From assembly GCF_023055435.1 (NCBI RefSeq), contig NW_025963804.1:62001-126000 (forward strand): a stretch of DNA of 64,000 bases, in the 5' to 3' direction. The position numbers and the translations under genes are program-made. Below the pieces are notes generated by a model. The model worked only from the letters and a program-made list of their open reading frames with translations, was not told where the DNA came from and ran no database searches. The stretch comes from Haliotis rufescens (lineage: Eukaryota). Below, piece by piece: positions 10,305 to 23,891 of the stretch. Numbering within the stretch: position 1 is the stretch's first letter; each line of letters begins with the position of its first letter.

Positions 10305-10462
10305 TTTGGTCCGGTATTGATAAAAGACGAGTTGATCATCCCTAATGTGACCCGGCATTGATAAAATTCGGGTGGATCATCCTTAATGTGACCCGGTGTT
10401 GATAAAAGTAGGGTGGATCATCCTGTATTGGCCCGATGTTGATATAAGTCGGGTGGGTCATC
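10305..10462. repeat. ~41-42-bp minisatellite that received the Maverick insertion
   Basis: Units like GTGACCCGG..TTGATAAAAGTCGGGTGGATCATCC; uninterrupted copy at ~42610-42790. Confidence 0.75.
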
Positions 10463-10972
10463 AGTAGTAACCTGCATCGGTAGTGGACCACCAGGATTTC
10501 TGGGACCGCTCAGATTTCTGGGACCAAGATGGCGGCACATCCGTTTCCGGTCACGTGACCTGCGCAGTGCATGATGGGTACCTGCGCGCGCATGCAAGAT
10601 GGCGTCGCATCCGTTTCCGGTGGCGCGCGCATGCAAGATGGCGTCGCATCCGTGTCCGGTGGCGTACGCATGGAAAGAGGGCGTCGCTTCCGTTTCCGGG
10701 GAGGAGGAGGAGGGATAGGGGGAAAACCCGGAGAAGCGCCCGTACGAGGGGAACAAGATCGACAGGGTTGTTGTTCTTGTGTTGTTCTAAAAATAGAAAT
10801 AGACGTGGGGTGGTGGTGGGGGTGGTGAAGGGAGGGAGGGAGGGAGGGAGGGAGGGAGGGGAGAAGGGGTGGGTTCACGGTGTCGTGTAGGGTGGGGGGG
10901 TGGGAGGGTCGTCAAAGCAAAGGAGGAAAAGCTGTCTTTCGGGAGAGATGGGTGGCCCTGAAAAGGGCCGTT
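10463..10972 (+). repeat. Left terminal inverted repeat of the Maverick
   Basis: Reverse complement of 21987-22497 apart from a few differences, mostly in the G-rich tract. Confidence 0.95.
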
Positions 10973-10974
10973 TT
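10934..10974 (-). terminator. Histone-type 3' end signal (stem-loop 10954-10969 plus HDE-like)
   Basis: Minus strand reads AAAAC GGCCCTTTTCAGGGCC ACCCA TCTCTCCCG AAAGAC. Confidence 0.85.
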
Positions 10975-10979
10975 GATGT

Positions 10980-11336
10980 TTACATGGTTGTGCATCCCAT
11001 GGTACAAAGGCACGGGTGGACTTTCATCTGTCTCCTCACAGGACACCTACTGGTGTGTGTTAACCGCCTCACGTAGGTGTCCTTGAGGATGGTCTTACAG
11101 TACACACATTCGAAAGTCCCATCCCGTACCCTTGTACCAAGGGCATAGACGGGCAGGCCCCCTTGACATCGGCCACATTGCCACGCTGGAGACCATGGGG
11201 GTAGTGGGGCTGGTGGTGATGTTTCTTTCCACCCAGGCAAAGGTTGTGCCACTGTGGTGATCTCTAAATCCCAGTTTTCTTTCAGGGGGTAGTTGTTGCC
11301 GGTGTTGTTGTTGTTGTTGTTGCTGCTACTCATCAT
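10980..11336 (-). CDS. Small zinc-ribbon protein (CxxC...CxxC), Maverick accessory gene
   Basis: 118-aa ORF with WQCGRC and FECVYC; TATA/Inr cassette directly upstream and histone-type stem-loop 10 nt after the stop. Confidence 0.65.
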   Translation of the reverse strand: MMSSSNNNNNNTGNNYPLKENWDLEITTVAQPLPGWKETSPPAPLPPWSPAWQCGRCQGGLPVYALGTRVRDGTFECVYCKTILKDTYVRRLTHTSRCPVRRQMKVHPCLCTMGCTTM

Positions 11337-11364
11337 GATGCTTTCTTTTCAATCAATTTTTACA

Positions 11365-11660
11365 AGTGACACTGACCCACTCGAATCCACGCTTGTTTTA
11401 TAGGAGAGACACTGACACCCTGCCTCCCGGTTGGTTCGCCAGGCCGCAGCTCCGATTGGCTCGTTCCGGGGCCCGGCCCGCACCTCGGTTTTCCAAAACG
11501 GACCGACCCCTGTGTTTCTTTTCCATAGGAAATGGATTTTACCATGGGAGAGAAAGCACAACCCCGGTTCGACCAATCAGAGCCCCGCCTGGTCCGAGCG
11601 CCGCTTCTGATTGGTCGACCACCCAGGCTTCGGATTGGTCCGATTTCGATCCGTTTTTTT
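11365..11660 (-). promoter_or_regulatory. Repeated CCAAT/TATA/Inr promoter cassette, copy 1
   Basis: Several CCAATC boxes; TATAAAA (11402-11396) 29 nt before the A of TCAGT (11373); points at the zinc-ribbon ORF. Confidence 0.8.
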
Positions 11661-12314
11661 TTCTTCTTTGGTAGCCTTGGTATTTTTTGAGGTAGACGGT
11701 CGTCTGAATGGTAAAGGAAGGTGGACCTTCATAGGTAGACATGAACGTGGGAATGCCTACGCGATGTACGTGGTGACACCCCCATGCCAATCGGAATGTC
11801 ATGTGTGCGTGTGTGTGTGTGTATGTCTTCAAACAGACGTTGACGTTGATGCATAGAATAACGTGTGGTCAGTCAAAACGTGGTGTCCTGTGTGTGTGTA
11901 TCGAGTCGTGTCGTAGTGAGATGAATAGAGAAAGATCGATACACCTACGTGACGTTTGCACACGTCATGGACTTCGTGTCGCGATGTGAACGTCATGGTT
12001 GTACTTTGTGTGTTGTCATGCAAACGTCGTACCCTGTGCGTGTTTTCAAATTATTATTATTATTATTTAAGGATACCGAGGTGTTGACACTCGTGTAGGT
12101 CGACAGGCGTACTGTGACGCGTGTGTTCATGCACACGTGATGTTTGACGTGGTGTACTACGTGTCTCTATGGATCTATGGATCTAACTCTATTTATATTT
12201 ATTTATATCTATGTATTGTATTTTTAGACGTGTGCCTCCAAGAGGTCTAGGGGGAGGATGTGGGTTCTTTGTTTTGGAGGGGCAGAGGGTTTAGCAAAGC
12301 AAAGGAAGAAAGTT

Positions 12315-12355
12315 GTCTTTTGGGTGAGATGGGTGGCCCTGAAAAGGGCCGTTTT
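12315..12355 (-). terminator. Histone-type 3' end signal (stem-loop 12335-12350 plus HDE-like)
   Basis: Minus strand reads AAAAC GGCCCTTTTCAGGGCC ACCCA TCTCACCCA AAAGAC, ~125 nt after the BIR gene stop. Confidence 0.85.
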
Positions 12356-12475
12356 GGGGGAAGAAAAACTTTTCTGCTGCTGTCCACTTGGGGTTCCAAC
12401 CAAGAAAAGAAAAACATTTGAACGGGAACTTGAACGGGAACTTGAACGGGAACGCAGGACACGGGAAACGTCCTC

Positions 12476-12940
12476 CTAGGCAGCCGGCCGTGCTACGTCA
12501 TTCGTGTACCTCTGTTTCTCTTCGCAGAGATAGTGCAGTTGTAGCTTCTTCTGGTGTTTCACCAGCCCGGTTAGCTTGAGGTAATCGCAGTCTGGGGACC
12601 ACTTGTGATGTGCCGCCCAAGGATCGTCGTGGGGTGCCCATTGTCTCAGCCGCACCCCACATTGGAAACAGCACACCCCATCGGCACCCTGAGTGTAGAC
12701 AAAGCCCGCATGGGCCATCTCTTCAGCAGTCTGATACATTTGCGTGGGCCACGTCTCAAACGAAGCGAGCCTTCTTTCAAAGCGTAGATAATAGTGCGAT
12801 GGTGTTTGACTGAGCAGTGACACCGCCTCCTCGGCATGACTCTTACTCCAGCATTCACGAGGTTCTGCACTATCCATCACCGCATCTTCGCCACGTGTCG
12901 TCGTCGTCGTCGTCGTACCACTCTTCTTTGTTTCAGCCAT
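12476..12940 (-). CDS. Single-BIR inhibitor-of-apoptosis (IAP)-like protein
   Basis: RLASFETWP...MAHAGFVY...VCCFQCG..L.QW..HDDPWAAHHKWSPDC is a canonical BIR fold with Cx2Cx16Hx6C; no RING. Confidence 0.92.
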   Translation of the reverse strand: MAETKKSGTTTTTTTRGEDAVMDSAEPRECWSKSHAEEAVSLLSQTPSHYYLRFERRLASFETWPTQMYQTAEEMAHAGFVYTQGADGVCCFQCGVRLRQWAPHDDPWAAHHKWSPDCDYLKLTGLVKHQKKLQLHYLCEEKQRYTNDVARPAA

Positions 12941-12960
12941 TCTAGATGATTTTATGTAAC

Positions 12961-13255
12961 ATACACTGACCCACTCGAATCCACGCTTGTTTTATAGGGG
13001 AAGAACCGGATCGAAACTCACTGCTTCCTGGTTGGTCCAAAACGCAGCGCACCGATTGGTTCGTTCCGGGGCCTGGTCCGCACCTCGGTTTTCTAAAACG
13101 ACCCGACCCTTGTGTTTCTTTTCCATAGGAAATGGATTTTACCATGGGAGAGAAAGCACAACTCGGTTCGGGTGCTGTCTTCTGATTGGTCGTTGCTGTC
13201 TTCTGATTGGTCGGCCATCCAGGCTTCGGATTGGTCCGATTTCGATCCTGTTTTG
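12961..13255 (-). promoter_or_regulatory. Promoter cassette, copy 2 (between the divergent BIR gene and polB)
   Basis: Same core; TATAAAA (12996-12990) 29 nt before the A of TCAGT (12967). Confidence 0.8.
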
Positions 13256-13329
13256 GGGAAGGGTTGTCCATCCCTCAGACGTTCAGCACCTCTTAGAGTA
13301 CAGACGTTCATCAGATACACATCGCTATA

Positions 13330-16300
13330 ATGACGAGCAACCAAAGTACGCCCTATCGTTTGGAGAGGAAAGATATCACCCGCTCCAGACGGTTAAGAAC
13401 TGCTAATCATACCTATCGTTTGACTTTCAACCCAGACTACTTGGACACCGTACCACCGGAACGCGTCCCCATGGAACTGCCAGCTTTATTTGACAGGGTG
13501 ATCGATGACTTTTATGAACAGATATCAGGTCAGAAGGGAGATCGTATTGGTCTAGGTATCGATCATCCCGCTTTGAACACACCCATACGGATACCCTTTC
13601 GACGTTTTGAAGATCTCCATGGGCTAACTATTTTGCAAGCCGTGGAAAAAGTCCAACAGTCCAACAAAGACCTGAACATCGATGCCACCATGGATGTGAC
13701 CTTAGTACACGTCGCAGATCCCAACAGGGTAGGATCGGGCAGTGGTGCTCCCCGGCTGAAAAACGTGATTGGACTCGAAGCTTTTTTAACACGCAAAAAG
13801 TGCATCGTACGGATCAAGAACGAAGATCAATCCTGTTTGGCACGGGCCCTGGTGGTGGCACAGCATTATGCCCACAAGCCTCACCCTCTGACCCCAGCAT
13901 GGACCGCCCAGCGAAAGAGACTGACGAGAACGGATCGCGTCGACGTTCAAGGCATACGGGCACGGGCCTTGTTTCGAAGCCTTGGCCTGCCCGAAGGACC
14001 CTGTCGGGGTCTGGACGACCTCGCACGCGTGGGACGAACCTTGACCCGTCTGCATTATCAACTGAAAGTCTACAGTCAAGAGGTGGGTCAGAGACTGTTG
14101 TACAAGTGTGATGAGACTCCACCCCACGCCACCGTGCTGCATCTATACCATCATGATCAGCACTACGATGTCATCACTTCCATGCCCGCTTTTTATGGCT
14201 CTAACCATTACTGCGAATGCTGTGACAAACGTTACGACCATCCCGAAAACCATCCCTGCACCAAGGAATACCGCTGTTACCGCTGCTTCTACTCTAGTTA
14301 TTGTGGACCCCAGGAAGAGCACGGGATCCCTTGCTTGACATGTCAAGGTTGGTTCCCCAATCCAACGTGTTACACCCGACATCTCCAGTCACCGTCAGAG
14401 GGAAAACCCAGCGCCTGTCAATCGATTCACAGGTGCCCGAACTGTTTTCAGTTGGTCCGCGTCTTGGAGACCCCCATGGCTCACCACGCGTGCTTCGATG
14501 AAGAACATCCCTGCTTGGTGTGCCGAGAACCCATGACCCCAGATCATCGCTGTTACATGACGCCTCTCGGTGAAGAAAACGAGGAGGAGGAGGGGGAGGA
14601 AGCGGAGAAGGAGGAGGAGGGTGAAGAGGAACAACATCCCCTACGAGACCATGTTCAATACGCCTTCTACGATTTTGAATGCATGCAAGACACGGGGGAA
14701 CACATTCCAAATTTGTGCGTGGTGCAACTAGGATGTGGACGATGCATCAGTGAAGTGAGCAAGAACTTGTGCGAACACTGTCCATGGAGAGAAGAAGGGT
14801 ATGGTCCCAGCCTTGAGATCGTGTTTCGAGGCCCCACCACGCGACATGATGTGTGTGTTTGGTTGACCACGTTGTCTGAAATACCCAAGAAGAAGCCCCA
14901 CCCAGAGGAAGAGGAGGACAGCACACGCAAGGGGACGACAGCTCACCTGGGGAAAAAAAGAAAACGGGATGACACCCCCTCAAGAAAGCACGCTTCCAAA
15001 TGACAGGCATCACCCCAGCAGGAGGGGGAGGAGTTGGGGGAAGAGGGGAAGGAGATGGAAGAGGGGGAAGAGGGGGAAGAGGCCATGGAAGTGGAGAAAA
15101 CAAAGAAGCCAAAGAACAAGAACACCTCCTGTCATACAGTCCCGAAGGAGGATCGCATTTATGTGATGGCCCATAATGCACGATCCTATGATTTACACTT
15201 AGTCCTGAAGGGTCTGTCCCCCCTCCTGGTGACACTCCCCACCAAGATTCGGCATGGCCAACAAATTTTGCAAATGACCCTGGGACGGTTATGTTTCGAA
15301 GACAGCTTAAATTTCATCCCTTACCCCCTGAAAGCCTTTCCCAAGAGCTTTGGGCTGAAAGAAATGAAGAAAGGGTACTTTCCACACTTTTTCAATACGA
15401 GAGTCAACCAGACCTACAGAGGTCCCTATCCACCAGCCGTCACGTACGATCCCGATGGCATGTCTCCCGCGGAACGCACAGCCTTCCTCCAGTGGCATAC
15501 CCAAAAAGTGCAAGAAGGAGCCTTGTTCGACTTACAAGGAGAACTTTTAACCTACTGCCAAAGCGATGTGGACATTTTGAGACGGGGATGCGCCGACTTC
15601 CGACAGAACGCCATCCACTCGGTGGGCATGGATCCCTTTGTGGAAGTGATGACAGCTGCAGCGTTCACCATCAAATCCTTCCGAAAACACGACCTGAAAC
15701 CCAATACCATCGCCATTCTCCCACCTCAAGGCTACCAACCCAAGAGAAACAATTCCCAGGCCTGTATGCACTGGCTCCACTATCTGATGGAAACGGACCC
15801 CCATCTGCACCTCCAGCACGCCAGGAATGGCGGTGAAAAAGAGTTCACGTGTGGAGGGGGTCAACATCGGTACACCGTGGATGGCTACGATCCAGCGACA
15901 GGCACCGTCTACGAATTCCTGGGCTGTTTCTGGCATGGGTGCCAGGCCTGTCACAAGACCCGACGTGGAGAACCGCATCCCGTCCTGGGCTCGTCGTTGG
16001 GAGCCCGTTACACCGACACCCACTACCGCTTGAGTCTCTTGAGTCAACACCCTGAGGTGAAACGGATCGTCACCCTGTGGGAGCACGAGTTTACGAAAAT
16101 GCAACGGGAGGACTCCGCACTGCGTGCTTTCTTGCAGGGACCCCCCTGTATCCACGTCCCCGGGCTGCTCAACCCTCGCGATGCCTTCTATGGAGGATGC
16201 ACCAATGCGACGCGATTATGCTACGAAGCCCAAGAAGGTGAAACCATCAAGTACATCGATATTTGTTCCCTTTATCCCTACATTTGTAAGACCGGAGTGT

Positions 16301-17580
16301 TTCCCACGGGACACCCGACCCTTCTCCATCAACCCCCTGTGGACACGTTGTTTGAACTGAAAGGCCTGATCCAATGCCGTGTCTTACCCCCGAAACGACT
16401 TTACCATCCGCTACTGCCTTACAGATCGGGTGGCAAACTGCTCTGTCCTTTGTGCCGCACGTGTGCCGATACCCGGTCAGACTCCCCCTGCGAGCACACG
16501 GACGAAGAGAGGTCATGGGTGGGGACGTAGGCCACCGTAGAACTCCAGGAAGCCGTGAAGAAGTATGACTACCGGGTGCTTCAGATCTACGACGTTTGGC
16601 ATTTTGACACCTTTGCACAGCATGACCCCGACACCCAGCAAGTGGGACTCTTTGACACTTACATCGATCGACATTTCAAGGAGAAGCTCGAAGCCAGCGG
16701 ATACCCCGAAGGATGTACGGATCACGACGCGTACATCCAGGAGATCTACGACAAAGAAGGCATTGGGTTGGACAAGGACCGCATCGAAAAAAATCCAGGA
16801 CGTCGCACGATTGCCAAGATGCAACTGAATTCGCTCTGGGGCAAGTTTGGGCAACGGGTAGACTACAGTCAGAACGTGTATATGAACGATCCTGTACAGT
16901 ACTTTGCCTTGTGGAGGGATGAACGCAATACCATCGAGGATGTGGTCGTTGTCAACGAACACATGGTGGAAGTGACCTATACCCAGCAGAAAGAATTCCA
17001 AACCCCTCATTCTCATTTCAACGTCGCCATCGCTGCTTGGGTCACTGCCCAAGCACGTCTCAAGCTGTACGAGACCCTTGCCCTGGTGGACCGCAGGGTG
17101 TTGTACTTTGACACGGACAGTGTCATTTACATTCATCGACCCCACGACGCGAATCCAGAGCTGGGTCATTCGTTGGGTGAGTTTACGGATGAACTGGACG
17201 GAAACACCATCGAGACGTTTGTGTCGGGAGGCCCCAAAAACTATGGCTACGAGTTAATGAACCCCAGACCCGATGGAACGCGCACGACCTGCAAAGTGCG
17301 AGGGTTCACTTTGAATTACCGAAACCAACGCCATCTCAACTTTGACACCATGAAAGGACTGATACTGGGACAACGGCCTGGGAAAGAGGAGGAGAAAATC
17401 AGTTTGGATTACCCTCATCAGATCATTCGAAAAGGCCCTCGGCACGAAAACGCACTCGTGACCCGACCCACCCGAAAAGACTATCGTACCGTGTACGACA
17501 AGCGACGTCTCGTCTACGACGACATCACAGGGCTACCTGTAGACACGCTCCCCTTTGGGTACAGAGACGACTTTCACTAA
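13330..17580 (+). pseudogene. polB: Protein-primed family B DNA polymerase (Maverick pPolB) with two in-frame nonsense codons
   Basis: ORFs 13330-15003, 15034-16530 and 16555-17580 are all in one frame, separated by TGA (15001) and TAG (16528). Motifs: OTU-like (IKNEDQSCLARA...HYDVI), Cys-rich region, ExoI YDFE, ExoII HNARSYD, ExoIII YCQSDV, VSR-like insert (VDGYD..VYEFLGCFWHGC), PolA DICSLYP, PolB KMQLNSLWGKFGQ, PolC YFDTDS, GPKNY, KVRGF. Confidence 0.95.
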
Positions 17581-17629
17581 AATTTTTCATGACAGCGGAT
17601 CGAAACTGAATCGACATGGACCCCTACAG

Positions 17630-17890
17630 AAAAAAACGGATCGAAATCGGACCAATCCGAAGCCTGGATGATCGACCAATCAGAGGCCGCGCTCGGGCCA
17701 GGGTGGCCTCTGATTGGTCGAACCGAGGTTGTGCTTTCTCTCTCACGCTACAAGCCTAACCCTATGGAAAAGAAACACAAGGGTCAGTCCAGTTTGGAAA
17801 ACCAAGGTGAAAGTCAGGCCCCGGAACGGGCCAATCAGAAAGCAGGACCTCCGTGGCTTTTAATACGACCGACGCTCTCCGGTCATCACT
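17630..17890 (+). promoter_or_regulatory. Promoter cassette, copy 3 (diverged)
   Basis: GGATCGAAATCGGACCAATCCGAAGCC...CCTATGGAAAAGAAACACA; TATA degenerate; upstream of the 18083 gene. Confidence 0.7.
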
Positions 17891-18082
17891 TTTCACTGAA
17901 CGGACCAAGCAACAACATCGTCCCCTCTGATTGATGTTCCTCACGTTGTGTTGGTTGTTGGCGTTTTATCTGGAAGAAACGCGTGTTTGGAGAGAGTACC
18001 ATCAAGTGTTGACGTACCTCCGTGAAGACTTGGAAAGAAACAACAACAACAACAACAACGAACAGAACATCCGGACAACATC

Positions 18083-19310
18083 ATGTCGAACAACATGTCG
18101 AAACGGTTGAATGACAAGACACGAAGCGACATGAGTGGCCAAGGAAGCAGTGGAGATGGGAACGGTAACATGACTGCTGAACTGTGGGGTGAAGTGTACG
18201 ACTTGCTGTGTTTAAAGATGAAGACCGACGACGCGTACGCCAAGTTACGTGCGAAGGGCGACAACCTGATGTGCGACCAGATACGTTCAAAGATGAGGAA
18301 GCTGACTGAACCCGAGAAAGGCACATCCAAGAAGACGATCAAGAAGATCCAGAAGAAAAAGACACGCAAACCCACAGCCGTGGTGACCCCCACAGCAACG
18401 GCAACACCCCCCACCCCACCCCCACCCCCACAGCGCCAGTCCCCACCACCACCACCACCACCACCACCACAGCAGCCACAGCAACCACGACTGTGGCGAC
18501 AACAGACATCGACACGAGGGGGACATCCTTTTTGAAACCTGCCACACCTGCAACGCCTGCAAAAAGACGATCACGGAAGAAATTATCTCTGAAGATCTCT
18601 CCTCAAGAACAACTGTAAGTACCCTGCTCTTCTTTGTCTCAGTCATTCTTGATGTGATTCATATGCATGACCTATGCCTATCCTAAATGGACTCTGTCCT
18701 TATGATTGACAGGACCCCTGATGTCAGTTCAGCCCAGTCCGTGCTAGAACAGTGGTGGGAATAAACCCCTCGGGAGCCCACCTATTCACCGAATGCCCCT
18801 GTGACGATGGCGACGGGTGACCTCGATGATCATGAAGCGCTCAAGATGGCCACTCTCCCTTCCATGGATCTGGACACGCTTCCCCTGCTCGAGGCTTCTT
18901 GGTCACCAGCATCCCCGGAAGAGGTTCATGTCTACTCCTCAGGTACGCCCATGGTTTGCGACGATGATGATGATGACAACGTTGACCTGGATCCTTATGG
19001 AGAAGCTCAACTCACTCCCCTACAACGCGAATGTCGTGTTTGCCGACACAACAACATGTTAAGATACATCAGTTGCAACAGCGGGCAAGTGATGTGTCAT
19101 GCCTGTGAGCTGGAGCTCATAGACTGTACTTGTAGTATGTTGACCTATGACAGCATAGTGACACATGATGACATGCCTATCGCATCTGAGGATCACATCT
19201 TATGGTGATCCTCCTCTTCACTCGAAGAACTTTGTCAACACGCCAGCTGCAACCGTGATCAAGTGATGTGTCATGTCTGTTTCAGGGAGGCCATAGACTG
19301 TACGTGTTGA
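18083..19310 (+). pseudogene. Decayed spliced Maverick gene: basic/low-complexity N-terminus, acidic tract, duplicated Cys module
   Basis: Candidate GT-AG intron 18615-18712 joins a KRRSRKK frame to the 18801 frame. This needs one frameshift in the C/CCA tract (~18410-18470). In-frame stops at TAA 18762 and TGA 19206; the SCNxxQVMCHxC..xIDCTC module occurs twice; AATAAA at 19701. Confidence 0.5.
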
Positions 19311-19628
19311 ACGGTTGGGCCTCTCACAGGTTTGAGGGAGGACCACCTCTTAGGGACTTGAAGATGGAAGAGCTTGAAGATGGAAGAGGAAAACGTTGTC
19401 GCGTTATTGTTGTTGTTGTTGTTGTTGTTGTTGTAGGGACATGCAAAGCACTCCCTCCTCCATTGACTTTTCGTATTTCCATTGTATCGGGTTGTGATTG
19501 GTTTTTTCATGATTAAACAGTGATTGATTGAACTGACTCTTTGTGTCTTGATTGATCTCAACTCCAAAAGAGTGCCGAACCGAGGGTAGAGGTTGAGTTG
19601 AGATGTCGTTGACGTCGTCTGTCTGTCC

Positions 19629-19666
<38 letters not shown>

Positions 19667-19890
19667 GCCTCTGTCATGTCAGTGCACACCAAAGTGAAGA
19701 AATAAAATTAAAAATAGATAAAAGAGAAAGGCCATGCTTGAAAGATCAGCTGCCTGGTGTCAGTCATTCCAGGACGCATCGATCCCCCCTACACCCCTCC
19801 CCGTGTGCCATGTCATGTCATGTCATGGATCATGTCATGGATCATGCCGTGTGTCCGTCAACCCAAACACAGGATGACGTCACGTGATGA

Positions 19891-20128
19891 GGTGTAGGAG
19901 ATGGAGAGTTTCATAAAAGCTAAAGTCATGACCTTCCGTTGAAGGGTGTAGGGTGGAGAGTTTCATAAAAGCTAAAGTCATGACCTTCCGTTGAAGGGTG
20001 TAGGGTGGAGAGTTTCATAAAAGCTAAAGTCATGACCTTCCGTTGAAGGGTGTAGGGTGGAGAGTTTCATAAAAGCTAAAGTCATGACCTTCCGTTGAAG
20101 GGTGTAGGGTGGAGAGTTTCATAAAAGC
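19891..20128 (+). repeat. 52-bp tandem repeat (~4.5 units) upstream of the second BIR gene
   Basis: CATAAAAG recurs at 19912, 19964, 20016, 20068 and 20120. Confidence 0.95.
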
Positions 20129-20170
20129 AGGCGAACCCTCAGACCTTCTTTCAGTGAAGTCACCGTCATC

Positions 20171-20695
20171 ATGGAGCAAAGACGTTCTATGAATGCCATG
20201 TCATCCTCCCGAGATGTCGTCACCGATTCCGAGTGGGTGTCTGAAAAGGCGAGAGAACAAGAAGCGAGAAAACGTTCACTCTTGATGGACGACACACTCT
20301 TGATTGACGACAGGTGTCGACACGGTGACGTTCTGGAGAGACCTTTTCCTTCCTTGTGTCAACCTTCTCATCCCCACTATGATTCATTTCAAGAACGTCT
20401 GAGGTCTTTTAAAACGTGGCCTCAACAGATGACCAAGACCCCTTATGACATGGCCATGGCTGGCTATTTCTATCCAGGACGAGGGGACTGTGTGACCTGT
20501 TATTGCTGCGGTGTGGCACTCCGCCAATGGGAAGCCACAGACCAACCCTGGAAAGAACATCTGAAGCATGCCAAAGTCCCCTGCGAATACTTGTGTGTGT
20601 TTTGTCCTGATGGAGAAGTGAACGAAAAATACAGACGTTTGGTGTCCCAAGAAGCACGGAAACGAAGAGTCGAGTGTCTTGTTCACCCCAAGTGA
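20171..20695 (+). CDS. Second single-BIR IAP-like protein
   Basis: ERLRSFKTWP...MAMAGYFY...VTCYCCG..L.QWEATDQPWKEHLKHAKVPC; no RING; ATTAAA at 20838. Confidence 0.92.
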   Translation: MEQRRSMNAMSSSRDVVTDSEWVSEKAREQEARKRSLLMDDTLLIDDRCRHGDVLERPFPSLCQPSHPHYDSFQERLRSFKTWPQQMTKTPYDMAMAGYFYPGRGDCVTCYCCGVALRQWEATDQPWKEHLKHAKVPCEYLCVFCPDGEVNEKYRRLVSQEARKRRVECLVHPK

Positions 20696-20929
20696 CAACG
20701 TTTCTTTTTTTTTTTCAAAGTGGTCAGACGTTCCTACCCTCGCGGTCACCCCTCCCTCGTGTTCACAAAAATCACAGGGATGTCCCCCCTCATCCTGTGA
20801 CTTTTGTTTTGTGGTGTTGGTTCATGTGATCAGGGGGATTAAATTTTTTGTTAAAAACTCATAGTCGTGTTATGTTGTCTGTAGGATGAAGAAAAAACAA
20901 AACAGGATCGAAATGCACATCCCGATAAA

Positions 20930-21195
20930 AAACCGGATCGAAATCGGACCAATCCGAAGCCTGGGTGGTCGACCAATCAGAAGCGGCGCTCGGACCAGGC
21001 GGGGCTCTGATTGGCCGAACCGGGGTTGTGCTTTCTCTCCCATGGTAAAATCCATTTCCTATGGAAAAGAAACACAGGGGTCGGTCCGTTTTGGAAAACC
21101 GAGGTGCAGGCCAGGCCCCGGAACGAACCAATCGGGGGCGCTGCCTGGGGAACCAATCAGGAAGCAGGGTGTCAGTGTCTCTCCTATAAAAACAA
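20930..21195 (+). promoter_or_regulatory. Promoter cassette, copy 4
   Basis: Near-identical inverse of copy 1, ending CCTATAAAA ~45 nt before the CCHC ATG. Confidence 0.8.
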
Positions 21196-21230
21196 AACAA
21201 GAGCGAAGCCACTCACACACACTGCATTCT

Positions 21231-21869
21231 ATGAAACCCATCATGTCAGCTCGATACAGTTGTAGGATGTGCCAGACCGACAGTCACAGTTACCTGTACT
21301 GCCCTGAAGTGACATGTACCGAGTGCCACACTCAAGGTCACCGTCACTATGTCTGTCCGAAGCTGAACAGTCAAGAGAAGCAGGAGAAGCAGGAGAAGCA
21401 GTACCAGGGCCCCTGTTACAACTGTGAAGCCCTGGGTCATTTCGCTGCAGATTGCCCAGAACCCCGTCGAAAGAAGACTCCCCATCGCCTGGACCGCTGT
21501 TACAACTGTGGAGCCCTGGGTCATTTCGCTGCAGATTGCCCAGAACCCAGTCGAAAGAAAACGTTAGCAACACCGTCCACGTCGACACCCGTGGCATCCG
21601 TGGCAACCGTGACCCCCGTGGCCCCCGTGACACCCGTGACACCCGTGGCACAAGTGCTTCATCTCATCGAAGACATGCATTCCGATGTCCTCGACCTAAA
21701 AGAATGTCTCACACAACTCCGGGTAGGCATCACACCTCGTCTAGAGAAAAGAAAACGGAACAGGTCCCCCTCACGAAAACACGTTTCAAAGCGCCGACGA
21801 CACCTTCCGTCCGAGGATGAGATGGAAGTAGAGGATGGAGAAGTGAGATCCTCTGAACAAAGTGACTAA
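21231..21869 (+). CDS. 4x CCHC zinc-knuckle protein with NLS and C-terminal EDGEV motif
   Basis: Four Cx2Cx4Hx4C knuckles, KRKRNRSPSRKHVSKRRR, then EMEVEDGEVRSS. Start placed at the first ATG after the TATA (~21185), not at the track start 20886. Confidence 0.85.
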   Translation: MKPIMSARYSCRMCQTDSHSYLYCPEVTCTECHTQGHRHYVCPKLNSQEKQEKQEKQYQGPCYNCEALGHFAADCPEPRRKKTPHRLDRCYNCGALGHFAADCPEPSRKKTLATPSTSTPVASVATVTPVAPVTPVTPVAQVLHLIEDMHSDVLDLKECLTQLRVGITPRLEKRKRNRSPSRKHVSKRRRHLPSEDEMEVEDGEVRSSEQSD

Positions 21870-21947
21870 CGCATGGGTCATGCTGCCCCACTGTTTTTAC
21901 CCGTTTCCCATCGTTTGCAGTTTTTCCAGTGTTCCAGTGTTCCTGCC

Positions 21948-21978
<31 letters not shown>

Positions 21979-21984
21979 TGTTTT

Positions 21985-22025
21985 CCAACGGCCCTTTTCA
22001 GGGCCACCCATCTCTCCCGAAAGAC
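21985..22025 (+). terminator. Histone-type 3' end signal (stem-loop 21990-22005 plus HDE-like)
   Basis: CCAAC GGCCCTTTTCAGGGCC ACCCA TCTCTCCCG AAAGAC, ~120 nt after the CCHC gene stop. Confidence 0.85.
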
Positions 22026-22497
22026 AGCTTTTCCTCCTTTGCTTTGACGACCCTCCCACCCCCCACCCCCCACCACACCGTGAACCCACCCCTTCTCCCC
22101 TCTCCCTCCCTCCCTCCCTCCCTCCCTCCCTTCACCACCCCCACCACCACCCCACGTCTATTTCTATTTTTAGAACAACACAAGAACAACAACCCTGTCG
22201 ATCTTGTTCCCCTCGTACGGGCGCTTCTCCGGGTTTTCCCCCTATCCCTCCTCCTCCTCCCCGGAAACGGAAGCGACGCCCTCTTTCCATGCGTACGCCA
22301 CCGGACACGGATGCGACGCCATCTTGCACGCGCGCGCCACCGGAAACGGATGCGACGCCATCTTGCATGCGCGCGCAGGTACCCATCATGCACTGCGCAG
22401 GTCACGTGACCGGAAACGGATGTGCCGCCATCTTGGTCCCAGAAATCTGAGCGGTCCCAGAAATCCTGGTGGTCCACTACCGATGCAGGTTACTACT
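21987..22497 (-). repeat. Right terminal inverted repeat of the Maverick
   Basis: Reverse complement of 10463-10972. Confidence 0.95.
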
Positions 22498-23891
22498 GTC
22501 ATCCTTTATTTGACTCATTGTTGATAAATGTTAGCAAAGGATTACACAAACAGAATACACCAAACATGCTTTATATTCATTCATTCAAGTGTACATGCAT
22601 ATTTACAGGTCAACAGATAAACCAGTTTCACACCGGTGACCATCAGCTGACTGTCTTGTCACCTTTCACAATTAAACTGTAATGACCGCCCTGGCTCCGC
22701 TCGTCCATCTCACATCGCTAATGTGGTTCCCTCGAGTGTCGTATCTACACAAAGACATGGAGACTTCCTTTAAGTTCCCAGTGAATAGTCGCGCGTGTGA
22801 TATACAGCGCCACACCAGCTAGGGAGGGTTATATCTCTTCCCTGGTCACCTAGCACCCCCGGGACACGGTTCGCGGCGCCTCAGACGACTGGGCCACCCG
22901 TGCCCCCTGTCACAGATGACCAACTGTTGACATCGGTATATGTTATCGCGCATCCACATACCACGTAAGCAGAGTGTCAGGTGTTATTCTATCCCGGTGT
23001 CTGACGTATGCCAACTGTCTGTCTTGATGTTGTGCAACAAAACACCCGTCTCTTATAGCCATGCCCTGTACTGTTGTATATGACTCTGCTGAAATTCGAG
23101 AAGAATGTCTCGTGATAAGGTGGGCGTGGTAACTCGTTTTTCTACGTTTACCAGTCACATAATCTGATTTCGTCATTGCCAAGATAAGCTGTATGTGTTA
23201 CATAATATATGGTGTAGTCTTCCCATTTAAAACATACTGTTTGCTGCATTTCTTAATGACGTCATAATCCCATCGCTGTTTTCTGAAAAATGTAAACAGG
23301 CATATAAATTTATTCTATATTTATTAGGGATTAATAGGTGTCTCAATGATTCAGAGTTGCGTCCCTTAGGCATGAGAGGCAACGATGATCGTGGGTTTAT
23401 CACAGCCAAATCCGTGCTCCGTGGTAAAAATCTTGACCAGTATTATTTCAGTATTTCACTACATGAAGCCTTTTCGTTTTGTTTGTTTGTTTGTTGTTTA
23501 ACGCCCCACTCGGCAATATTCCAGCTATATGACGGCGGTCTGTAAATAATCGAGTCTGGACGTGACAATCCAGTGATCGATTTCATGAGCATCTTTCCAC
23601 GCAATTGGGATGCGATGACATACATCAACCAAGTCAGTGAGCCTGACCACCCGATCACGTTAGTCGTCTCATGATATATGTATACTGTAATGTATACAGT
23701 TCAAAGTCTACAGTCTACTGTATACAGTTAAACATCTCACTCCCCCATTTATGTATCATATAAACTAATAAGAAATGTAAATGTTTTCCGAGAAACTGTC
23801 ACATACACGTATATATTACTGTGAGGAGCCAACAACGTGTCAGCTCTTTTCTACATATCCGCCATCGTGCTGCTGTTGTCTGCTGTCCATG

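Follow-up and report, generated by a model that had tools for sequence, protein, structure and literature searches.

Introduction

Polintons or Mavericks (adintoviruses) are characterised by a protein-primed family B DNA polymerase (PolB), long terminal inverted repeats (TIRs) with AGTAGT ends and a 6-bp target-site duplication (TSD). The Haliotis rufescens element described here has all of these, but its family differs in being without integrase, capsids, ATPase and protease. In the text covered of PMC8502044, a term search returned no mention of stem-loops, hairpins or apoptosis genes.

According to PMC4604434, no cellular mRNAs other than those of replication-dependent histones are known to be without poly(A). 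In the account given by one preprint, SLBP binds the hairpin, U7 pairs with the downstream box and CPSF73 cuts five bases past the stem (bioRxiv 10.64898/2026.10.14.759114). The Polinton signal resembles the metazoan replication-dependent histone 3' end (RF00032 plus HDE) in its 16-nt hairpin, AC-rich flanks, ACCCA and purine box at host spacing, and the element genes, like metazoan histone genes, look intronless and have CCAAT/TATA-like modules upstream. It differs in that it follows non-histone genes of a mobile element and in that cleavage is here predicted from sequence.

In human LTR12 retroelements, U7 snRNA is reported to act on HDE-like motifs and to repress transcription through NF-Y (PMC11417402). 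This is also a mobile element with a motif read by the U7 system, but the Polinton has a full stem-loop and box behind stop codons, likely forming an mRNA end. HCMV depends on host SLBP (PMC9169081) and is likewise a DNA virus exploiting the histone mRNA machinery; in that case, however, a host protein is required, and the text covered does not mention viral genes with histone-signal ends. Full-text literature searches and term searches of PMC8502044, PMC9145170 and bioRxiv 10.64898/2026.10.14.759114 returned no account of Polintons, or of non-histone genes in viruses, with a histone 3' signal, although subscription papers, Repbase entries or preprint supplements could hold one.

Results

A capsid-less Polinton in the abalone genome

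The window is the whole 64,000-nt stretch of H. rufescens DNA that was analysed. It contains a Polinton/Maverick-type element bounded by the 6-bp TSD GTCATC (10457-10462 and 22498-22503), with the following features in window coordinates.

10463..22497: Polinton/Maverick-type element, capsid-less and integrase-less, 12.0 kb, AGTAGT ends
10463..10972, minus strand: left TIR, inner edge AAC + hairpin
10929..10974, minus strand: stem-loop (10954-10969) and HDE-like box of the left TIR; RF00032, 35.3 bits
10980..11336, minus strand: left terminal gene, 118 aa, Cys-rich; no Pfam match
12295..12356, minus strand: internal module copy behind BIR gene 1, hairpin 12335-12350; RF00032 at 12310-12355, 36.8 bits
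12476..12940, minus strand: BIR (inhibitor of apoptosis) gene 1, 154 aa; PF00653, E 7e-23
13330..17580, plus strand: protein-primed family B DNA polymerase, three ORF pieces in the window copy; PF03175
20171..20695, plus strand: BIR gene 2, without hairpin; ATTAAA at 20838
20886..21869, plus strand: right terminal zinc-knuckle (CCHC) gene; PF00098; a later Met near 21240 is the probable true start
20924..21191, plus strand: repeated promoter-like module with CCAAT-type boxes and a TATA-like motif, found by self-BLAST; putative promoter
11396-11663 (minus), 13021-13254 (minus) and 17630-17839 (plus): other copies of the promoter-like module, by self-BLAST
21987..22497, plus strand: right TIR, inner edge AAC + hairpin
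21990..22005, plus strand: stem-loop of the right TIR, with ACCCA at 22006-22010; RF00032 at 21985-22030, 36.1 bits
22019..22031, plus strand: HDE-like purine box of the right TIR, AAAGA core, by comparison with host H2A/H2B/H3/H4 3' ends

The TIRs (~510 bp each) are 98.6% identical between left and right, and both terminal genes point outward. The window polymerase is 94-95% identical to its closest named proteins, which are labelled Haliotis, and the remaining ORFs of the element are orphans. With seven proteins of co-resident Polintons as tblastn queries, no integrase, capsid, protease or ATPase was matched in the element. Judged by this gene content, it is a non-autonomous, capsid-less derivative, and the absent integrase, capsids, ATPase and protease are presumably borrowed from elsewhere. 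None of the ORFs upstream of the hairpins has a histone Pfam match; their products are a BIR protein, a zinc-knuckle protein and an orphan protein.

The promoter-like CCAAT/TATA-like module (200-270 nt) precedes four genes, and because of this recurrence the element looks assembled from promoter-ORF-3' end cassettes. That the repeat is a captured histone promoter was considered and rejected by sequence, as the 3' module was the sole BLAST match between the element and one host histone repeat. Reads on the element in a small-RNA run (2282 reads; window 12052-21723) are almost all antisense to genes, with inserts of ~29-33 nt, and a second run yielded 12 reads. These antisense small RNAs likely reflect piRNA silencing. 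Reads over the hairpins are too few, and on the left side they come from the opposite strand.

Three genes of the element are followed by histone-type 3' ends

Three matches to the Rfam Histone3 family (RF00032) exceed the gathering score of 34, with E about 1e-7, and are the sole Rfam matches at E<=10 within 13 kb. Two are located at the TIR edges (36.1 and 35.3 bits), confirming a preliminary description of this DNA in which both outward-facing terminal genes run into a TIR-encoded 3' end. The diverged copy of the TIR end that it placed behind the internal BIR gene was also recovered, at 12295-12356 and with 92% identity to the TIR module over 63 nt, and alignment of the two arms bore out that TIR identity ends exactly 3 nt (AAC) beyond the hairpin, on its 5' side.

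The window hairpin, GGCCCT-TTTC-AGGGCC, has a 6-bp stem and a 4-nt loop, with G-C at stem position 2, U at loop position 3 and AC-rich flanks. All four host core-histone genes (4/4) end AAC-GGTCCT-TTTC-AGGACC-ACCAA, followed by an AAAAGAA box; the AAAGA core starts 14 nt past the stem in the element versus 13 in these genes. Searched genome-wide, the hairpin pattern gave 1150 matches, a count that includes sites outside the window's family, versus 0 for the reversed control, and the window hairpins are therefore not chance matches. The host core-histone repeat (L098, L099) is 4.1 kb long with H2A, H2B, H3 and H4, and a fifth hairpin (H1) was not seen in the unit. A tandem array elsewhere (L081; G000:C46:12.17-12.21 Mb) consists of ~2.85-kb units; in each, a TATA-like motif and a disrupted ORF, seemingly not that of a histone, precede a terminal histone hairpin and box.

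Since AAC precedes the hairpin in the four host genes too, AAC and hairpin could be common to both arms by function alone. By alignment, what is demonstrably TIR-shared between the arms is the spacer and downstream box, which are the same in both TIR arms and different in the internal copy. The box of the window subfamily, GAAAGACAGC, deviates from the host box, AAAAGAATGC, and a host-like box, GAAAGAACGC, is present in 20 TIR-type contexts.

For the host machinery, an SLBP domain (PF15247) was found above cut-off in two exon-like pieces. An Rfam search for host U7 snRNA gave no match anywhere and also missed its positive controls, and a pattern combining an HDE complement with an Sm site gave 11 matches versus 13 in the control, none convincing.

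The stop-to-hairpin gap is 10 nt for the left gene, 120 nt for the zinc-knuckle gene and 125 nt for BIR gene 1, thus one below and two above the 25-60 nt of histone mRNAs (bioRxiv 10.64898/2026.10.14.759114). Because these gaps are non-canonical, decay at the end of S phase may work abnormally. None of the records listed as carrying the sequence is RNA. One contig, assembled from what is presumed to be an RNA run, stops at 10947, adjoining the predicted cut. It was rejected as evidence of a processed end, because a graph assembly breaks ~30 nt into any sequence common to three sites, so that a break at this position is expected in any case.

The TIR edge coincides with the hairpin in the window's family

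To follow the TIR edge across copies, 27 of 30 listed arm pairs were examined and 24 were scored. In 22 of the 24 scored copies, the edge lies 0-3 nt 5' of the hairpin and the arms share no homology inward of it; in the other two, which are small derivatives, the inverted repeat extends past the hairpin. Three of the 27 arm pairs have no recognisable hairpin on at least one arm: a point mutant with the usual edge, a rearranged arm and a hairpin-less element. In another fold-back copy the inverted repeat extends at least 413 nt past the hairpin. Fold-back, polymerase-less derivatives, with inverted repeats reaching 200-400+ nt beyond it, are located at L089 and L093/L094. The same two kinds of terminal sequence occur in all 22 edge-at-hairpin copies and, because these are alike, the copies represent one architecture repeated and not independent events. 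The preliminary description had proposed aligning TIR ends to see whether the boundary stays fixed while terminal genes vary; the boundary is fixed in 22/24 copies, but the terminal genes are invariant there.

Ten elements were selected by their polymerase instead. Six have the window architecture and four, which we call subfamily B (L125/L126, L127/L128, L133/L134 and L139/L140), do not, with TIRs of 1.2-1.9 kb and no hairpin at a polymerase C-terminus identity of 93-96%. The outward orphan gene of subfamily B (395-437 aa) has ATTAAA 85-94 nt behind its stop, and the inner edge of its TIR begins in sequence homologous to the tail of the family A internal module. In an unrooted tree of 15 polymerase 5' stretches, subfamily B falls in two places among family A; since this tree is unrooted and mosaic, the order of hairpin gain and loss is not readable from it. 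Based on these comparisons, the edge-at-hairpin rule is specific to the window's family. As the general rule first put forward it fails, both in subfamily B and in two capsid-encoding families.

BIR genes of capsid-encoding families have their own hairpins

In a family of the same genome with 61% polymerase identity, the entire BIR gene lies within a 1.2-kb TIR and, because of this location, is present twice. A variant hairpin (loop TATA) follows 24 nt later, mid-TIR, and scores 30.6 bits, below the RF00032 cut-off of 34. A capsid-encoding Polinton with its BIR gene inside the TIR is seen at L114:2729-3931 and L115:7805-9009; directly behind the 61% family polymerase gene is a weak HDV-like ribozyme match (L114:4448-4535, minus strand; 33.2 bits, cut-off 44, E 0.026). 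The family with 55% polymerase identity has a hairpin 36 nt behind its BIR gene, in single copy and outside the TIR, which scores 26 bits, again below 34, and has lost the U at loop position 3. A family with 44% polymerase identity has no hairpin. With the 61% family BIR as query, the 30 best BIR loci included 25 with a hairpin past the stop, in most cases at a distance of 24 or 36 nt. The BIR proteins of the two capsid-encoding families share 34-41% identity with BIR1, and a hairpin is absent from two further BIR genes. The signal is dispensable, since BIR gene 2, the 44% family and subfamily B do without it. Another family has a homologous terminal zinc-knuckle gene with an AATAAA end in place of the hairpin, which indicates that 3' ends are swappable.

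The preliminary description had the module copied inward from the TIR when the BIR gene was added. This direction was not borne out, as the BIR genes of the two other families have their own hairpins. TIR-to-internal copying is not shown by the box variants, because the window-type box is commonest at the internal site, including in elements whose TIRs retain the host-like box; nor by elements without the BIR cassette, because these could be deletions between promoter repeats.

A poly(A) signal follows some of these hairpins. AATAAA is present at 12203 (minus strand), ~130 nt past the BIR gene 1 module, and overall 50-135 nt past the hairpin behind BIR gene 1 and the BIR genes of both capsid-encoding families. 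Dual 3' signals are known from mollusc histone genes, and this, together with the non-canonical gaps in the window, would fit a hairpin that serves as an SLBP-binding translation or stability element in polyadenylated messages rather than as a cleavage signal. However, within the element no AATAAA or ATTAAA follows either TIR hairpin, and the AAAG core of the downstream box is unchanged in 25/25 right arms and stands at host spacing, neither of which SLBP binding alone needs. We consider such a role in polyadenylated messages unlikely.

The module is conserved, keeps its pairing and is probably exchanged

Among five polymerase-selected right arms, AAC+hairpin+ACCCA has 0.8% substitutions compared to 5.4% for the adjacent coding end and 12-25% for the outer TIR. 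The corresponding values are 0.4%, 5.6% and 7.5-17% for 20 arms, a biased set picked by TIR or hairpin pattern. Across 19 sequences from host and elements, pairing is kept in 108/108 stem cells, and 3/6 pairs show changes on both sides; these rows were hand-picked and are related, and one holds the 3' arm alone.

The zinc-knuckle 3' UTR is joined to internal-type downstream sequence in 4 of 92 distinct hairpin contexts, and the internal-type box was found in two TIR-type modules. These chimeras point to exchange at the module, and the position of the subfamily B TIR edge in the tail of the internal module is consistent with it. The suggestion that the hairpin is a portable terminator module is supported as regards portability, by the three different genes served, the chimeric contexts (4/92) and the two swapped boxes; its terminator role is a prediction from sequence.

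Conversion among the three copies in each element could slow divergence, and a histone 3' end captured once as passenger DNA might persist solely through TIR homogenisation or because it acts at the DNA level, for example as a site of protein binding or replication. Against this, divergence is 10-30 times faster in the remainder of the TIR, which is equally homogenised, the module is always on the sense strand behind a stop codon, stems differ between families with pairing retained, and in the 55% family the module is present once, outside the TIR. Capture as passenger DNA is accordingly regarded as very improbable.

Histone-type ends occur in metagenomic Polinton-like elements

To look beyond abalone, we scanned 89 polymerase-bearing loci from alignment-based scans, namely the best 80 of 487 metagenomic loci and 9 viral loci. 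A strict hairpin scan gave 6 matches in 4 of the 89, compared to 1 match in total for ten shuffles. No hairpin was found in the other 85, and just 31 of the 89 loci are at least 8 kb long. The four positive loci represent three distinct, unrelated metagenomic Polinton-like elements, two loci being near-identical. Four of the six hairpins pass the RF00032 cut-off (9 loci scanned), and the first hairpin of each element is 18-41 nt behind a non-histone ORF. L189 and L249 have weak A32-like ATPase matches and capsid/protease-like ORFs, and L186 has a full polymerase. L249:4831-6405 consists of three tandem hairpin-ended paralogous segments, and this element also encodes a protein kinase and three tRNAs. 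Scans of metagenome and viral contigs with single proteins, unlike the alignment scans, found nothing. Hairpin patterns gave 1 match on an unrelated viral contig in one scan and 0 in another; a histone-hairpin-like match on an unrelated viral contig, L100:1660-1681, is possibly chance.

Accessory genes followed by the signal thus occur in three Polinton lineages of abalone and in three unrelated metagenomic elements. Across these comparisons, the general feature is a histone-type mRNA end on Polinton accessory genes, and the TIR edge is family-specific.

The positions of the hairpins also bear on the proposal, made in the preliminary description, that the TIR-edge module mainly stops transcription ahead of terminal replication origins. 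Outward-gene hairpins are located 0.46-0.64 kb from the terminus in three families, whereas in subfamily B and the 44% family the poly(A) signals of outward genes are ~1.6-1.9 kb away from it, and Pol II is reported to pause at histone gene ends (PMC9133132). On the other hand, internal hairpins (BIR gene 1, three in L249 and one in L186) have no need of shielding, the outward polymerase gene of the 55% family has AATAAA ~0.75 kb from the terminus and no hairpin, and the independent families are few. Shielding of the origins as the main role thus appears quite unlikely.

Discussion

The feature described here is real and conserved, a known signal in a new setting, and the histone-type ends on Polinton accessory genes are a stronger and more interesting finding than the TIR edge. 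We consider it probable that the Polinton has a complete histone-type 3'-end signal behind three non-histone genes, one likely read by host SLBP and U7 snRNP to give non-polyadenylated messages, and that its TIR likely begins at the hairpin as the innermost sequence common to both ends. Some Polinton mRNAs are thus likely routed through the host histone-message pathway. By analogy with the metazoan pathway, SLBP would bind the Polinton hairpin, U7 would pair with the AAAGA box, CPSF73 would cut after ACCCA, at window positions 22010, 10949 and 12330, and Pol II would halt soon after the cut. The result would be compact termination of accessory messages, with anti-apoptotic (BIR) and other accessory proteins expressed in an S-phase- or germline-coupled manner, during element replication.

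For the TIR edge, we suggest that end-to-end copying between the termini of a linear replicating form homogenises the module and everything outward of it. Such copying could start at the module because both terminal genes end in an outward-facing copy; the module would be the innermost common sequence, and gene-specific sequence would stay inward. The position of the edge therefore likely arises as the module seeds end-to-end copying. With just 10 nt between the stop of the left gene and the hairpin, a TIR reaching much further inward would include coding sequence.

More broadly, we lean slightly towards the reading that animal Polintons/adintoviruses repeatedly captured the histone SLBP/U7 3'-end pathway, which would let anti-apoptotic and other accessory genes produce messages that are free of poly(A) and timed to S phase or the germline. 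If this is true, it would be a viral expression strategy unreported in the searched literature and would break the histone-only rule for the SLBP/U7 pathway, and Polintons may be one source of scattered histone-ended non-histone genes in invertebrate genomes.

Poly(A)-selected RNA-seq would miss hairpin-ended Polinton genes. Genes of one kind that end in a hairpin in one family but in a poly(A) signal in a different one allow natural comparisons, and the modules provide a direct test of whether processing needs the histone locus body and a histone promoter. If the signal is read as such, the Polinton would be a natural non-histone substrate of SLBP and U7. Together, these results suggest how Polintons may coordinate the expression of their genes with host DNA synthesis or with the germline.
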